In this document: piece by piece, positions 9,291-64,000 of the stretch
Layout: the number at the start of each line of letters is the position of its first letter
How positions within the stretch are numbered: the first letter of the stretch is position 1
Origin: an uncultured Saprospiraceae bacterium
GTDB lineage: Bacteria; Bacteroidota; Bacteroidia; Chitinophagales; Saprospiraceae
Assembly: GCA_964426625.1 (NCBI GenBank)
Contig: CAYRRD010000010.1
Coordinates: 9,428-73,427 of the forward strand
Length of the DNA stretch: 64,000 bases
Direction: 5' to 3'
The notes under the pieces: model-generated
Database searches by the model: none
Told to the model about the DNA's origin: nothing
The model's input: only the letters and a program-made list of their open reading frames with translations
Position numbers and translations under genes: made by a program

Positions 9291-9908
9291 TCAGAACACC
9301 GACATCAATTGCTGAACAAACATGCTGACGGATTTGGGGTAAATCACGATGGTGAAAATCAGACCGGTAACCGCACCATAAAAATGTGCGCTGTGATCAA
9401 TACGACCACCTTCCCTTTTGGCAGCATAATTTGAATACCACAGGTAAAGAACGCCCACGATGATACCAGGAATGGGGATCAGTCCATACAGATACAAATT
9501 TTGAAGTGGGAAAAAGAGCACATAGGCAAACATCACTCCGGAAATGGAGCCCGAAGCACCCACGGATCTGAAGTTGGGATCATGGAGGTGTTTTCGAAAT
9601 GTGAAAACACTGGCCATAAGGCCAGAAAGCAGAAAGAGTAGTATAAAATTGATCCTACCCAATGCGGATCCGAAAAGCTGGATAAAAAGATATTCTATCG
9701 CTTCTCCAAAGGTGAAGAATACAAAAAGATTAACCAAAAGGTGAAGCCAGCTTCCATGCAAAAATATGGAAGTGATCATTCGGTGATAGGACCGGTCTCT
9801 GGCCTCCACGTATGGATAATGCATCAGCTGGTGAAAAACGGATGGAGACCGGAATCCCCATAGGGATATACCAAACACAACAAAACAGAAAAGGACAGTT
9901 ATGCTCAT
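9291..9908 (-). CDS. Rhomboid family intramembrane serine protease
   Basis: 6-TM protein with the FLHGSWLHLLVNL histidine motif and GASGSISGV catalytic Ser motif. Confidence 0.85.
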   Translation of the reverse strand: MSITVLFCFVVFGISLWGFRSPSVFHQLMHYPYVEARDRSYHRMITSIFLHGSWLHLLVNLFVFFTFGEAIEYLFIQLFGSALGRINFILLFLLSGLMASVFTFRKHLHDPNFRSVGASGSISGVMFAYVLFFPLQNLYLYGLIPIPGIIVGVLYLWYSNYAAKREGGRIDHSAHFYGAVTGLIFTIVIYPKSVSMFVQQLMSVF

Positions 9909-25436: not shown

Positions 25437-25467
25437 TTTTAGCCAATAACGTCAAAATGAAATTTTC

Positions 25468-25611
25468 ATGAGAGGCATAAACGCTCAAAAAAGCAGAAAA
25501 AAAAGAGAAAGCGAAAAAGCGAAGGGATTCCAGAAGAAATTTTATCTCATCGTGGGTATTGTCACCCTGATTCTTGCTATATTAGTATACCTGGCTTACA
25601 GTAGTTATTGA
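25468..25611 (+). CDS. Possible small membrane protein (47 aa)
   Basis: Below the ORF-track cutoff. MRGINAQKSRKKRESEKAKGFQKKFYLIVGIVTLILAILVYLAYSSY has a basic N-terminus plus one clean TM helix, 32 nt after the helicase stop. Confidence 0.3.
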   Translation: MRGINAQKSRKKRESEKAKGFQKKFYLIVGIVTLILAILVYLAYSSY

Positions 25612-26136
25612 TGTCAGCCGCATTGATGCAAACGTTTATGAAGCCCTATTTCCATAGAGTGTACTTCTCAGGACTCTGTGGAAAAGGAGCTGTATGGCAC
25701 CTATATAGGGTGATGTATGATCGTTCCTACACGAAGCATTCAGGCATAGGATATGACCAGGGAAATTCCCGGTCTTATGGTTTCTGTGTTGGACGAAAAA
25801 AATACCTCAGTTGACATTTCTTTCAATCATGTAGAAAAAAATACATTGATTAGTCATTCAAATATTTGCACGCATTTTATACATTTATTGCATAATGGAC
25901 TACTCGAACACGCTCCGAATAAATTTAGCTTTTTTTCACCCTGGTCATCTGCTCAGCCGGGTGCATCTCTTTGCAGATCGTGATTACTTGGTTACGAAAC
26001 GGTACAGGCCACTTATGAATTTTATCCTCCCCTTTAAAAAAGAAATTCCGAGTCCCATTATCCTCAGAAGTGACAGCCTTTTTGCCACACGGTTTTTGAA
26101 CTTGTGGTTGCGTTACCAAAATCCTATCTAACCGTC

Positions 26137-59232: not shown

Positions 59233-61299
59233 ATGAGAACATCATACATCTGTTTGTTTCTTTTAATCACAGGTTCGTATTCCTGGGCACAGGAAATTAT
59301 CTGGTCTTCCAACCGACCACAAAACACCTTGATTGAAAATTGTGGTGCGGGAGAGTTTATACTAACCAATATGGGGAACGAGGCCGTGGAAATATCCATT
59401 GACCTTAGCGGAAACTTTGACGAAGCTGATATTTCGACCGACGTATTGTCCTCCGTTAATATCCAGCCGGGGAATGCTTATACTTTTATGATAGAAGCCC
59501 TGGGGGATAATTTGACGGAGTCGAATGAACAGGTAGTCATTACGGTTACCACCGGAGACCAGACACTGCACGAGGTGACTCTGAGCCTGGAGGATGAACT
59601 TTTTCTGGAAAGCCCCTTCACCGATGATTTTTCTATTTGTCCTGGTGTTGTGTTGTTAACAGCCACCAGTAATGCCAATATTACATGGATGCCTGGCAAT
59701 GTCGTCAATGATACTTTTGAGCTGGATCTCAGGGAAGAAACCGACGTCATTCTCACGGCAAGTCAGGGTAGCTGTATGGAAAGTTTACAGTTCACAATTT
59801 CTCCGGAGATCAATGTGGTCATTGATTATCCCGCGGATACCCTGTTTTTGTGCAAAGGGGACGATCCTACTTCACTTTCGGTCACGTTGACCAATACCGA
59901 TGAGGTAAACTGGAACTCACAGGGTTTTTTGTTTGGTCAGGGTCCCAATAACTCCATAGAAATTGATCCGGAAACTTCAGGGTGGCTTTATGCAACGGTC
60001 TCTGAGGGAAATTGTACGGTAACCGATACCTTGTACGTGAGGGTGGATAGCTTGCCAATTATCCTTTTTGATACCATTCCCAATAAAGATCCGTATTGTC
60101 CGGGAGAAATAGTTACCATATATGGTATGCCATTGCAACAGGATCTATACCCGGATGTAACCTATGAATGGCGTCAGGAGAATGGAATTCTCACGGATCT
60201 TAAAAAAGCGAACCTTACATTGACGACGACTGATACCATTGCTTTTGTGCGAACATCGACGAACAATGCCTGTGTAAGTACAGATAGCGTGGTGCTCAAC
60301 GTGGAGAACCCACCCATCGAACTCAACTTTACAGATACTTTGATTTGTCCAAATCAAACCCTAGAACTGGAATTGCTCAATCCGGAATTGTTCAAGTCCT
60401 ATGAATGGGGACCTGAGGACAAGGTAAGTTGTACGGAATGTGTGAAAACACGGGTAACGGTAGCTGAGCCTACTACGATCATGCTCAATCTGGAGACAGA
60501 AAATTGTCCGACGAGTGCCAGTGTTAATATCAATGTAGAAGCGCCCCGCCAGATTGACATTGTGGGAGATGCTCCAGTATGTCCGGATGAGGAGGTGCAG
60601 TTAACCGCGTTGGATGTGAAGGATTTTGAATCTTTTTCCTGGGAAGGCGCTGTGGATTTCTCCTGTACCAGTTGTCCAAATCCTTCGGTGAGTTCGGGTG
60701 ATGTGAATGTAGTTTCGCTGGTTGCAGTGGATGAAGATGGATGTCTTGGCGTGGGGAATTTTGTTTATCAGGTATATCCTACCCCCAATGTTTCAATTGG
60801 GATCAATCCCAATATAGTGGCTCAGGGGGAGACTGTCACCGCAACACTACAGACCAACCAGACCGAAAATTTTACGGATATAGTCTGGGAAGTGAATGGA
60901 CAAATTACCGACCAAACTGGTATGATGGCCAGTTTAACGATGGATTCGGAAAACAATACGATTGTCGTCACTGCTTTGACTTCCAATGGATGTCCGGTTT
61001 CTGCTATTCTTGACGTCACGACAGAACCACCTTCATATACCATACCCAATGCCTTTACACCGAATGCCCAATCCAATAATATTTTTAGGGTTGTGACGCA
61101 CGGGAATATCACGGTGGAAAGGATGCGGATTTTCTCCCGTTGGAGTCAGTTGATTTTTACTGATGAGAGCGGTGAAGGGTGGGACGGAACCCAAAATGGG
61201 AAAAGACTTCCTTCCGATACCTACGTATATATCGTTGAGCTCATTTTGCCTGACGGTCGCCGTATTGAAGAGACCAGCGAGGTCACTTTAATTAATTAA
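59233..61299 (+). CDS. T9SS type-B sorting domain (gliding motility-associated C-terminal domain) protein with Cys-containing Ig-like repeats
   Basis: Signal peptide and repeated ~75-80-aa modules with conserved Cys pairs. C-terminal IPNAFTPN...N..F........RMRIFSRWSQLIF......GWDG...G...PSDTYVYIV matches the CHU_C/type-B CTD. Confidence 0.88.
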   Translation: MRTSYICLFLLITGSYSWAQEIIWSSNRPQNTLIENCGAGEFILTNMGNEAVEISIDLSGNFDEADISTDVLSSVNIQPGNAYTFMIEALGDNLTESNEQVVITVTTGDQTLHEVTLSLEDELFLESPFTDDFSICPGVVLLTATSNANITWMPGNVVNDTFELDLREETDVILTASQGSCMESLQFTISPEINVVIDYPADTLFLCKGDDPTSLSVTLTNTDEVNWNSQGFLFGQGPNNSIEIDPETSGWLYATVSEGNCTVTDTLYVRVDSLPIILFDTIPNKDPYCPGEIVTIYGMPLQQDLYPDVTYEWRQENGILTDLKKANLTLTTTDTIAFVRTSTNNACVSTDSVVLNVENPPIELNFTDTLICPNQTLELELLNPELFKSYEWGPEDKVSCTECVKTRVTVAEPTTIMLNLETENCPTSASVNINVEAPRQIDIVGDAPVCPDEEVQLTALDVKDFESFSWEGAVDFSCTSCPNPSVSSGDVNVVSLVAVDEDGCLGVGNFVYQVYPTPNVSIGINPNIVAQGETVTATLQTNQTENFTDIVWEVNGQITDQTGMMASLTMDSENNTIVVTALTSNGCPVSAILDVTTEPPSYTIPNAFTPNAQSNNIFRVVTHGNITVERMRIFSRWSQLIFTDESGEGWDGTQNGKRLPSDTYVYIVELILPDGRRIEETSEVTLIN

Positions 61300-61389
61300 T
61301 AATATGAGTTTATTTTTGGTCTGATTTTTGCGACTTGTACAACAACGAACCACTTGGTTGTATTGAAGGTATATATTGCAAATCAGGAA

Positions 61390-61397
61390 TATATTTG
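61390..61397 (+). promoter_or_regulatory. Bacteroidota-type -7 box (TAtaTTTG) at the start of the ORF-poor island
   Basis: Exact TAnnTTTG match ~100 nt upstream of the 58-aa ORF. Candidate TTG -33 elements lie at non-ideal spacing (61363-65, 61376-78). Confidence 0.3.
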
Positions 61398-61499
61398 GGA
61401 TAAATTTAACACTTAATTTCCTGAAAAAGTGATAACGAAAAATGCCTTGAATCGTTTTATAAAAGAACGTATCTTCTAACTCTTATTTATCTCGATCCG

Positions 61500-61676
61500 A
61501 TGCAAAAATCCAAACCACTGACCGTCCCAAAAGCCAATGAAAAAGAAGTTCTGGAGCAACTACCGCTGACAATTTCCCGCACTGTGAAAAAACACCTTGA
61601 AATGTTGACGGAGCCTTTTACAGTTCCCAATGGGTTGAATGCAAAAATTAAAAGGGTATTCAACAAACCGTCCTGA
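61500..61676 (+). CDS. Possible small protein (58 aa)
   Basis: ATG-initiated ORF below the track cutoff: MQKSKPLTVPKANEKEVLEQLPLTISRTVKKHLEMLTEPFTVPNGLNAKIKRVFNKPS. It is the only sizeable + strand ORF in the island. No family recognised. Confidence 0.3.
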   Translation: MQKSKPLTVPKANEKEVLEQLPLTISRTVKKHLEMLTEPFTVPNGLNAKIKRVFNKPS

Positions 61677-62009
61677 ACTTTCTAATTTGGTGCAAGATAG
61701 CCCCAACACGAAATAGGCATAAGGCTTGAAAATCCCGAAGCCTTACAATGGAGGTGCGTCACCAGATGAATAAAGTCCGCAGACAGTTAGAACGCAAGTA
61801 CTTTACCACACATAGGAGGGACATTCAACAGCAAAAATACGTTGGCTATTATTGATGAAAAATTAAGATTTTAAAGGTCACAGCCACGATTGGGCTAAAC
61901 CACAAATTCTATCCAGGTTGTCCATTATTAGGCTGGAAATAGGGCCAGAAGTTAGAAGATATGAATTGGGTGAGAAGAATACCCATTTCTATTCCTGACC
62001 GAAAAAGGG

Positions 62010-62330
62010 GTTTGGTCTACCAAACTTCAGAGCGCATATTTAGTTTATAGACTATCCGCACAACCACTACCCAATTGTTTCCAGGCAGGTATTGTCGAAG
62101 GTTTCATAAACTTTATTGAGTTCACGTATTCCAATCCGGTCGGTCCGCGACCACATAATGGTTTCGTAGCAGTCAATGCTGGCAGTTTGTCAAACCTTGT
62201 CGGGTCAACGACCACCCACTGGTTTCCCGACAGGCAGTGTTCCAAGTTTCTCAAACCTTGGTGGACCAGCGGCCAGCACTAACGGTCATGGGCATTGATC
62301 TTATTGGTTTGACAAACCTTGATGACCTGG
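62010..62330. repeat. Degenerate tandem repeat array (three phased 61-nt units plus two looser upstream copies) with palindromic GTTTG-N-CAAAC core
   Basis: CAAACCTTG lies at 62191, 62252 and 62313 (exact 61-nt phase). Units 62148-62208, 62209-62269 and 62270-62330 align gap-free at roughly two-thirds identity. Related palindromes lie at 62010-62025 and 62101-62111. Confidence 0.75.
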
Positions 62331-62731
62331 TACATTAAGATCATTTCTTTCCCATCTAATCTTCCCTCCGAGAATCGGCCGGGGTAAAGACCAGTGCTAT
62401 GTTTCATAAGTAATATATATTGATGAAGTGATTATTTTTTGTCGTACTTATAAAACGAAACCGAGCATAGGACGACAGGCCTACATGAGGCTTTTTGTGA
62501 TGAAGGTACGGCGAAAAGAAGCCGTCATAAGTGTAAAGTGCTTATGAAATAGCATTAGATGGGGATAAGTGGAATGCGTATTCGCGTAGAAAAAACATAG
62601 CAATTCACCTAAAAAATATACTGTCCGATCAGCAGACACGCCCAAATCAAATCAGAAAAATATTTGACATCAAACCTTCCTCTTGTTTTTCTTTTTACCG
62701 CTCAATGCCCCGTTTTTTGACGAAATTCTGA

Positions 62732-62739
62732 TATATTTG
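62732..62739 (+). promoter_or_regulatory. Bacteroidota-type -7 box (TAtaTTTG) upstream of the ECF sigma gene
   Basis: Exact TAnnTTTG match 24 nt upstream of ATG 62763. The upstream TTTG at 62716-62719 is closer than the canonical spacing. Confidence 0.3.
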
Positions 62740-62762
62740 AGAATGAGAGATCGATAAAGACA

Positions 62763-63335
62763 ATGGATTTTTCTAAAGATGAAAGGGTTTTACTATTTCA
62801 AAGAATAGCTCAAGGCGATTCCGTAGCATTTGAGCAGGTTTATGAAATGTACAGGCATGGACTCTTTGGGATTGCGTTTAAATTGACAAAATCGAAATCT
62901 GTCTCTGAGGACATCGTGCAGGATGTTTTCAAGGATCTTTGGAACGGCAAGCACAATCTTGCCAGTGTGCAGGAACCGTCCTCCTATATCTTTTCTATTA
63001 CTTATCGAAAATCCTTTCAGTATTTAAAACAAGTTTCGCAGGATCGTCTCCTATTTGCAGAACTGAAAAGTAACCTTAAGTCTCTCGCCTATTTTGATGA
63101 CAAGCTACTGGAAGTAGAGGAATTGAAAGAGATTCTTCAAAAAATCATTGAGGAGCTTCCTCCCCGCAGGCAACTAATTTTTAAAATGAGTCGGGAGAAA
63201 GGATTAAGTTATGAGGAAATCGCTATAAAACTGAATATTTCCCCACTGACTGTGAAAAAGCAGATGACGCTTGCATTACAAGCGATTCGGATGAATCTGG
63301 CCCACGTTTCCTCTGGGTTTAAAAGATTTTTATAA
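62763..63335 (+). CDS. ECF-type RNA polymerase sigma-70 factor
   Basis: Region 2 (DIVQDVFKDLW) and region 4 HTH (LSYEEIAIKLNISPLTVKKQM). 190 aa, followed by a FecR-like gene. Confidence 0.9.
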   Translation: MDFSKDERVLLFQRIAQGDSVAFEQVYEMYRHGLFGIAFKLTKSKSVSEDIVQDVFKDLWNGKHNLASVQEPSSYIFSITYRKSFQYLKQVSQDRLLFAELKSNLKSLAYFDDKLLEVEELKEILQKIIEELPPRRQLIFKMSREKGLSYEEIAIKLNISPLTVKKQMTLALQAIRMNLAHVSSGFKRFL

Positions 63336-63401
63336 AAAAATCCATCCTCGAATACTCCCTTTTCTCTTTTCCCAACACTATTCGGATACCAGTGGATATG
63401 T

Positions 63402-64000
63402 ATGTGGCAGTTGACTGCTAATAATAAAGATGAATCTATGAAAGATGATTTGGAATATATCAACCGTCTATTCGGCAAGTATATTCAAGATGAAATTTCT
63501 GAGGAAGAACTAGAAATCCTTTTCAAGCTCATTAAAGACTGTGATTTCGAGAATTTTGTTCCAGAAAAGGAGATTGTAAAATATTTTGGGAACGAAATGG
63601 AGGATATCATCGGTGAGGATAATTCGTCCAAACCAAAGGAAGGAAGGGTGTTCCAGCTCTATACGAAAAAGATAGCCTATGTGGCAGCTGCCATTCTGCT
63701 AATTGTGGTTTCGGGGATCTATCACCGTTTGTCGGATCGATACGAGAATAATATGGGTCAAGAACTGGTTCAGTCTGTTGAACCTCTCGATGTCATGCCC
63801 GGACAAAACTTTGCTGTATTAACTTCTTCCAGGGGGGAGAGTATCATTTTATCGGAAACAGACGACGGTCAAATAGATACTGGAGAAGATGTCGACATTG
63901 TAAAGGTCAACGACGGAGAATTAATTTATACCTCACAGGGAAAAGCTGAACCTGACGAAATGATCTATAACACACTTTCCACACCCAGGGGAGGACAGTA
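63402..64000 (+). CDS. FecR family anti-sigma factor / transmembrane sensor (3'-truncated by window end)
   Basis: Open frame to the window edge, not in the ORF track. It has RLFGKYIQDEISEEELEILFKLI, one TM (IAYVAAAILLIVVSGIY), VMPGQNFAVLTSSRGESIILSE and YNTLSTPRGGQ, all typical FecR motifs. An alternative start lies at 63438. Confidence 0.85.
   Translation, partial: MWQLTANNKDESMKDDLEYINRLFGKYIQDEISEEELEILFKLIKDCDFENFVPEKEIVKYFGNEMEDIIGEDNSSKPKEGRVFQLYTKKIAYVAAAILLIVVSGIYHRLSDRYENNMGQELVQSVEPLDVMPGQNFAVLTSSRGESIILSETDDGQIDTGEDVDIVKVNDGELIYTSQGKAEPDEMIYNTLSTPRGGQ

Follow-up and report, generated by a model that had tools for sequence, protein, structure and literature searches.

We analysed an island of 1,463 nt that is poor in open reading frames (ORFs), at positions 61300-62762 of a 64,000-nt stretch from an uncultured Saprospiraceae bacterium (GenBank contig CAYRRD010000010.1, positions 9,428 to 73,427; the whole stretch is hereafter called the window). 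The island lies between a gene for a CHU_C-domain protein and a gene for an extracytoplasmic function (ECF) sigma factor, and is probably the junction of two independently conserved blocks, with a small protein gene on its left side, an ECF promoter block on its right side and a lineage-specific spacer in between. The left part, of about 350 nt, would be a small transcription unit belonging to the upstream CHU_C block, and the right part, of ~80 nt, would hold the sigma gene's own promoter and short leader. [quoted passage not shown] An earlier description made from the DNA letters alone (the sequence-only reading) had proposed a large or multi-copy non-coding RNA (ncRNA), a cis-regulatory array of the ECF/FecR locus or a decayed gene, and none of these three global readings fits the whole island. 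Comparison with relatives removes a false lead, in that the apparent big ncRNA locus is mostly dispensable junction DNA, and what is new here is limited to a member of a small-protein family and possibly a new hairpin repeat.

In a greedy ORF map the island is the longest gap in the window, and the next real gaps, once the artefacts of the greedy choice are discounted, are of ~667, 437 and 393 nt, which keeps the ranking proposed earlier for this densely coding window with slightly different lengths (~700, 480 and 440 nt). As also observed earlier, the + strand of the island holds no ORF of 60 aa or more, and the sole ORF of this size is one of 69 aa on the minus strand (62045-62254), inside a repeat array. 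No gene was called in the island in any of 10 near-identical metagenome contigs of the same population. These ten exact-match contigs (L001-L010), together with L155, represent the same strain, being 99.94-99.99% identical, and have no comparative power; they carry two single-nucleotide polymorphisms in the 1.46-kb island versus 21 in 11.2 kb overall, a similar density. The sequence-only reading had listed a 58-aa ORF at 61500-61676 among the internal features of the island, which is indeed present, yet it is a real gene, so the island is not wholly gene-free. With this gene excluded, the genuinely non-coding part is 61677-62762 (1,086 nt), and no other gap in the window is as long.

When 1.84 billion representative proteins were scanned with HMMER, homologs of the 58-aa protein with 58-61 aa were retrieved at 82, 70, 60 and 51% identity, and a call of 79 aa at 42%. 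The ratio of nonsynonymous to synonymous substitution rates (dN/dS, Nei-Gojobori) is 0.04-0.22 in six pairwise comparisons among four lineages, with synonymous sites near saturation, and over the last 21 codons 10 of the 14 differences from the relative L017 fall at codon position 3. Judged by its kept length and frame, and by a dN/dS far below one, the 58-aa ORF (+ strand) is a genuine conserved protein gene, of an uncharacterised family, which was missed by the gene callers in this lineage and is the best-supported functional element of the island. Its genomic position is also constant, since in Saprospiraceae relatives (L025-L031, L152-L154) it is always found directly after the CHU_C gene, and the contigs encoding homologs share the order ABC ATPase, photolyase, hypothetical gene, SCO1/SenC, cytochrome c, CHU_C and small gene. 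In the window this neighbour is a 688-aa CHU_C-domain gene (59233-61299, + strand), whose product belongs to the type B cargo of the type IX secretion system (T9SS) and has Membranicola marinus (68%) and Membranihabitans marinus (54%) as nearest named relatives. The small protein has no significant Pfam, NCBIfam or PDB profile match, and AlphaFold2 predicts, at modest confidence (mean pLDDT 71.5), a long helix (residues 12-41) followed by a short one (45-54). With its own predicted promoter, strong purifying selection, and constant length and neighbourhood, the gene resembles other unannotated small ORFs of less than 60 aa that gene callers miss; it differs from described small-protein families in matching no Pfam, NCBIfam or PDB family and in its linkage to a T9SS (CHU_C) cargo gene. 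This new unannotated gene is a concrete candidate for T9SS or gliding biology in Membranicola-like Saprospiraceae.

Upstream of the small gene, the TAnnTTTG box claimed earlier at 61390-61397 was found there as TATATTTG (+ strand), and is kept as (T/A)ATATTTG in L025, L031, L152 and L153. TAnnTTTG is the consensus of the -7 element recognised by sigma-A in Bacteroidota (PMC9723704), and this box is predicted to serve the small gene as its promoter; with 58 occurrences of the motif in the 64-kb window, a match by itself is weak evidence. The 5' leader that follows (61398-61499, + strand) includes the conserved elements ATTTAACA..., TAACGAAAAT...ATCGTTTTA and GAACnTATC. Across six lineages with saturated synonymous sites (alignment A7), promoter and leader (61340-61502) retain 81% mean column identity, and RNAalifold found no convincing covariation in the leader. 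The palindrome AACCAnTTGGTT (61348-61359), ~30 nt upstream of the -7 box and kept in five of the six lineages of this alignment, may be an operator, or the 3' hairpin or end of the CHU_C transcript. Taken together, positions 61340-61686 would comprise promoter, a leader of ~100 nt and gene, that is, a complete small transcription unit of the upstream block. A further TAnnTTTG motif, on the minus strand at 61832-61839 (TATTTTTG; TATCTTTG in L017), faces the small gene, where it might start an antisense transcript, or may be there by chance.

On the right side of the island, the ~80 nt directly preceding the sigma gene (62763-63335, + strand, with Sigma70_r2/r4 domains) are conserved in an alignment of the window with L017, L020/L022 and L011, whose sigma proteins are 94, 83 and 79% identical, respectively. 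Over 62713-62776, 30-column windows show zero mismatch to L017 besides a 4-nt gap in L017. This putative promoter and leader block (62685-62762, + strand) has a -7 box, again TATATTTG, at 62732-62739. In L022 the preceding gene stops 106 nt ahead of sigma, and in L011, the single close relative with the sigma protein retrieved in a genome-contig scan (its contig starts 1.3 kb upstream), the upstream position is occupied by an unrelated minus-strand gene and similarity to the window begins at 62657. That minus-strand gene is a candidate VWA-like gene, as judged by eye from a DxSxS motif. In general, homology with the lineages that carry the ECF block (L011, L019-L024) starts ~75-105 nt before the sigma ATG. 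Downstream of sigma, the contigs of the same strain encode FecR, an STN-domain SusC, SusD and a fasciclin protein, and the sigma-FecR-SusC-SusD locus is an ECF/anti-sigma-controlled polysaccharide-utilisation locus (PUL). On these alignments, nothing from further upstream than the ~80-nt block accompanies the ECF/FecR/SusC/SusD locus in other genomes. A cis-regulatory array as a conserved part of this locus is therefore not supported: where sigma is 83% and 79% identical, either an unrelated gene or just ~106 nt lies upstream, orthologous ECF loci have no more than the final ~80-105 nt in common with the window, and the island does not travel with the locus. At both ends of the island the promoters are predicted from TATATTTG, which has a plausible spacing to a start codon and is kept in relatives, and the likeness to Bacteroidota sigma-A promoters (PMC9723704) consists of this -7 box. 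A side observation concerns the FecR gene, for which an in-frame upstream ATG (MWQLTANNKDES...) is present in both lineages (window 63399-63440, L017 1424-1460), but is called as the start in L017 (395 aa) and not in the window lineage (383 aa).

The ~1-kb interior is common only to L017 and L018 (sigma 94% identical), while other lineages share only the edges of the island. The aligned segments are 61614-62016 (78% identity), 62189-62367 (79%) and 62554-64000 (88%), the last of which extends across sigma and FecR. Missing from L017/L018 are 172 nt of repeat units (62017-62188) and the hairpin region (62368-62553), and there are smaller indels as well. At fourfold-degenerate sites the identity to L017 is 75% for sigma (n=67) and 81% for FecR (n=144), and since the filler is 78-79% identical, it diverges at about the neutral rate of its neighbours. 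In 30-column sliding windows the identity to L017 is mostly 0.70-0.83, with some patches of 0.90-0.93, and the substitutions in the filler (55 transitions to 74 transversions) show no 3-base periodicity. The spacer that directly follows the small gene (61687-62009), ~78% identical to L017, has no detectable function.

Searches for recognisable content in the island were negative throughout. The Rfam search at gathering thresholds gave 0 matches in the 64-kb window, in agreement with the earlier remark that no Rfam-type motif is recognised, and below threshold the best island match was a yeast snoRNA model with E = 1.2, with nothing credible. Six-frame Pfam and PHROGs searches of the island found no match, ARAGORN found no tRNA or tmRNA in it, blastn against plasmid and phage collections gave no match to it, and the protein encoded upstream of sigma in L011 has no similarity to it by tblastn. 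The folding z-scores of 120-nt windows are ~0 on both strands over 61500-62340. The earlier proposal of a decayed gene thus finds nothing in its favour among the six-frame searches, the substitution pattern or the L011 gene, and that of a large or multi-copy ncRNA spanning the island is not supported, for lack of Rfam matches, of folding signal over 61500-62340 and of a consensus structure in the repeat units; some + strand RNA support remains for 62349-62565 only, and not for the rest of the island.

Homology with the five lineages that carry the CHU_C block ends at ~61686, within ~10 nt of the stop codon of the small gene, and five unrelated sequences follow the gene in these five lineages, with several assemblies breaking there. 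The position just after the small-gene stop codon therefore looks like a recombination or rearrangement hot spot. In addition, the L017 small gene is, at its 3' end (L017 1-64), 90% identical to L031 517-588 and only 78% to window 61614-61676, and past the stop codon the sequence of L017 resembles that of the window. Among the third positions of the last 21 codons, 10 of 21 differ from L017, far more than in sigma or FecR, which indicates that the two sides of the stop codon have different histories. The simplest reading would be a recombination boundary at the stop codon, with L017 as a mosaic; the island and ECF block of the window and L017 would then have a more recent common ancestor than the CHU_C block. 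Such a boundary fits the hot-spot idea. The sequences after the stop codon lie at ~61677-61690 in the window, 9110-9630 in L152, 5983-6365 in L153, 581-927 in L031, 6178-6398 in L025 and 6178-6650 in L030, and those of L031 and L153 are common only over the first 171 nt. Several metagenome contigs end 50-400 nt from the stop codon, and in the lineage with the 82% small protein (L025 6178-6398, L026 6178-6335) a CTTTCAG/CTATCAG-type microsatellite follows the gene, where all contigs stop. We also observed a 26-nt direct repeat (21 of 26 matches) between 61379-61404 and 62648-62673, by which part of the small-gene promoter region is copied near the right edge of the island; its right copy has 16 nt deleted in L017, and the repeat may be a trace left when the blocks were joined.

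The first of the two structured features in the filler is a degenerate minisatellite (62010-62321) with units of ~87, 84, 61 and 61 nt, each ending in a palindromic box, (A)GTTTGnCAAACCTTG. A repeat search recovered two 61-nt units at 62142-62263 that are 70% alike, and the box GTTTGWCAAACCTTG is present in four copies with spacings of 84, 61 and 61 nt and is confined to the island within the window. The phased array delimited earlier at 62010-62330 is thus real as to its repeats and boxes, but its units have diverged too far for Tandem Repeats Finder, which reports no array even at score 30. L017, without the 172 nt of 62017-62188, has three boxes and two full units. Orthologous units are ~77% alike and paralogous ones ~55-60%, indicating that the array predates the split between the window and L017 and is not undergoing homogenisation. 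RNAalifold gives no consensus fold for the units (-0.12 kcal/mol), and their 61-nt period is not a multiple of three. The 69-aa minus-strand ORF was rejected as a gene, its L017 counterpart being 45% identical over 29 aa, with the 172-nt indel shifting the frame.

With head-to-tail units and a copy-number difference between relatives, the closest description of this array appears to be a decaying intergenic minisatellite. Mycobacterial interspersed repetitive units (MIRUs) are tandem units of 40-100 bp between genes. The array resembles such variable-number tandem repeats (VNTRs) in its head-to-tail, degenerate, intergenic units of 61-87 nt and in the copy number that differs between close relatives, but its units each carry a conserved palindromic box, no other loci were seen in 64 kb, and copy number does not vary among the 10 contigs of the window's own population. 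In type III toxin-antitoxin systems the ToxI-like antitoxin consists of tandem RNA repeats, and here too tandem direct repeats are followed by a hairpin upstream of a same-strand gene; this assignment was rejected, since the next gene encodes an ECF sigma factor, not a ToxN/Abi-type toxin, and the units, 55-77% alike, share no fold. A metagenome scan for three CAAACCTTG boxes 40-60 nt apart returned at least 120 unrelated tandem repeats (coding repeats, satellites and CRISPRs, which are clusters of short palindromic repeats at regular intervals), and among the matches listed none has blastn similarity to the island, the pattern being too unspecific to bear on the dispersal of the repeat family. 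In the unrelated downstream spacer of L152 (~9360-9385) we noted GGTTTGTCGAACCTT, one mismatch from the box core GTTTGTCAAACCTT, which may be a coincidence.

The second structured feature is a nested hairpin on the + strand. The outer stem, P1, has 10 bp and is formed by 62349-62358 and 62556-62565, and encloses an inner hairpin, P2 (62360-62390), and a long hairpin, P3 (62394-62555), which lies between P2 and the 3' strand of P1. P3 is a self-contained fold of 59 pairs with terminal inverted repeats (GCTATGTTTCATAAG/CTTATGAAATAGC), and no other local inverted repeat in the window reaches its length. Here the sequence-only reading had described a cluster of hairpins with a terminator-like element at 62396-62560; the folding is real, but it corresponds to one long hairpin, and the supposed terminator (62477-62493) is the apex of P3. 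Without a U-tract behind it, the hairpin does not qualify as a canonical intrinsic terminator. P3 is absent from L017/L018, in which the indel spans 164-186 nt with ambiguous boundaries, and we infer that the difference is an insertion rather than a deletion.

Bacterial MITEs and hairpin-forming repeats include ERIC, Correia, RUP and REP (reviewed in PMC3184786). P3 is similar to the elements reviewed there in its length of ~160 nt, in having no supported ORF, in its terminal inverted repeats of 13-15 nt and in folding as one long hairpin, as well as in its intergenic site in transcribed orientation and its presence or absence between two lineages. It differs from them in that the sequence on either side (...GGGGTAAAGACCAGT / element / ATTAGATGG...) has no direct repeat that could be recognised as a target-site duplication, and in that no second copy was found in the window and about 225 kb of relatives' loci, multicopy occurrence being the defining MITE feature. 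P3 thus looks, by resemblance only, like a MITE-like element inserted in the loop of a smaller stem-loop that was there before. Should P3 turn out to be multicopy, a MITE-like family would thereby be defined for a lineage that has received little study.

The hairpin is also the only island feature that may be a functional RNA. We nevertheless regard it as unlikely that the right half of the island is a cis-acting + strand RNA element, in which the P1/P2 stem-loop is extended here by P3 and acts on transcripts that read through from the small gene, possibly as an RNase III processing site, a stabiliser or a transcriptional insulator before the sigma promoter. This proposal draws on the strand asymmetry of the folding, as 62335-62600 folds with -81.1 kcal/mol (z -5.05) on the + strand versus -60.0 kcal/mol (z -2.8) on the minus strand, and P3 alone with -51.1 kcal/mol (z -5.5) versus -33.9 kcal/mol (z -4.1), the latter without a continuous hairpin; P3 also has 10 G·U pairs versus 0-2 A·C oppositions. 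Furthermore, P1 and P2 form in L017 too (-29 kcal/mol, z -3.2), where the pair 62351:62563, C-G in the window, is changed to G-C, and the element is oriented as both flanking genes. However, this compensatory change is a single pair in two sequences, a strong z-score is expected of any inverted-repeat insertion, no Rfam family matches, and the absence of a U-tract sets the element apart from canonical intrinsic terminators. Moreover, P3 is missing from the only relative with the island and hence is dispensable, and relatives with 79-83% identical sigma have no such element. A wider version, in which P1/P2/P3 (62349-62565) is an undescribed + strand RNA element of Saprospiraceae and the adjacent palindromic-box minisatellite is a protein-binding array rather than a product of drift, strikes us as rather improbable; such an element could represent a new family of RNA-folding mobile hairpins, or a processing or insulator element between the small gene and the ECF-controlled operon.

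There is little reason to believe that the filler is instead an unrecognisable remnant, whether of a decayed gene, of a fossil mobile element or of a degenerate orphan CRISPR-like array in which a ~30-nt repeat and a 31-nt spacer would give the 61-nt period. CRISPR arrays of 29+32 nt do have this period, the G+C content of 0.42-0.50 in 61600-62350 is nearer to coding than to intergenic DNA, and the site looks like a hot spot of rearrangement, in that relatives have five different sequences downstream of it. Against this stand the lack of any Pfam or PHROG match in the six frames, of codon periodicity and of similarity to the gene found at this position in L011, and among the genes called from 52.7 kb to 9 kb beyond the window there is no cas, integrase or transposase. 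A CRISPR array in particular was rejected, given that its 'repeats' would be only ~77% alike, and the 'spacers' of units U1-U3 are homologous to each other, with orthologous spacers retained in L017.

The least probable of the alternatives, and in our view a very doubtful one, is that the 61-nt units are an operator array, whose palindromic box AAGGTTTGnCAAACCTT, repeated at ~6 helical turns, would bind a dimeric protein that controls the ECF/PUL operon or the small gene, or would mark a centromere-like or nucleoid-organising site. In its favour, no part of any unit is better conserved than the box, in either lineage, the 8+8 palindrome has a centre of just 1 nt, which leaves too little room for a good RNA hairpin, its spacing is regular (61, 61 and 84 nt) and it is found only here within the window, but there are 4-5 boxes versus 3 between close relatives, neither the ECF loci with 79-83% sigma identity nor any other small-gene locus has the array, no gene alongside codes for a candidate binding protein, the conservation of the box could reflect the duplication history of the repeat alone, and the listed matches of the unspecific metagenome scan include no related arrays.

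The junction of two conserved blocks, with a spacer that probably originated by rearrangement and is presumably without function, thus remains our preferred explanation, although several observations weigh against it. Only two lineages carry the filler, which leaves room for weak or patchy constraint, and patches of 90-93% identity are found at 61703-61747, at 62298-62331, in the flanks of the P3 gap (~62554-62576) and at 62607-62636. The neutral baseline is itself uncertain, considering that the last 21 codons of the small gene differ so strongly at third positions from L017. The core CAAACCT is kept in five of the six aligned units, though the units are otherwise ~55-77% alike, which suggests selection on the box and is the sole hint of constraint in the array, and the array has 50% G+C, above nearby coding and intergenic levels, which is unexpected for old neutral DNA. 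Regarding the hairpin, the excess of G·U pairs over A·C oppositions and the difference of 17 kcal/mol between the strands of P3, together with the compensatory change in P1, suggest constraint at the RNA level on the + strand, and without a target-site duplication or second copy the term MITE denotes resemblance only.

Some minor features of the filler were also recorded. A small hairpin of 8 bp, TAAGGCTT(N10)AAGCCTTA, lies on the + strand at 61720-61745, 44 nt past the small-gene stop codon; it is the one described earlier at 61719-61744, although its arms are actually at 61720-61727 and 61738-61745, one base away. It is found in the most conserved patch of the spacer (61703-61747), and its stem has one change relative to L017, from G-C to G·U on the + strand, which is weak evidence with two lineages only. 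A perfect 12-nt inverted repeat (61470-61481/61950-61961) was considered as an inverton and rejected, its right arm not being conserved in L017, and a + strand ORF of 35 aa (61748-61855) was rejected as a gene on account of the loss of its start codon in L017. Elsewhere in the window, the second-longest gap (25437-26103, 667 nt), which has no Rfam match at gathering thresholds, contains a 20-nt inverted repeat with 80% complementarity between its arms (25743-25762/25939-25958).

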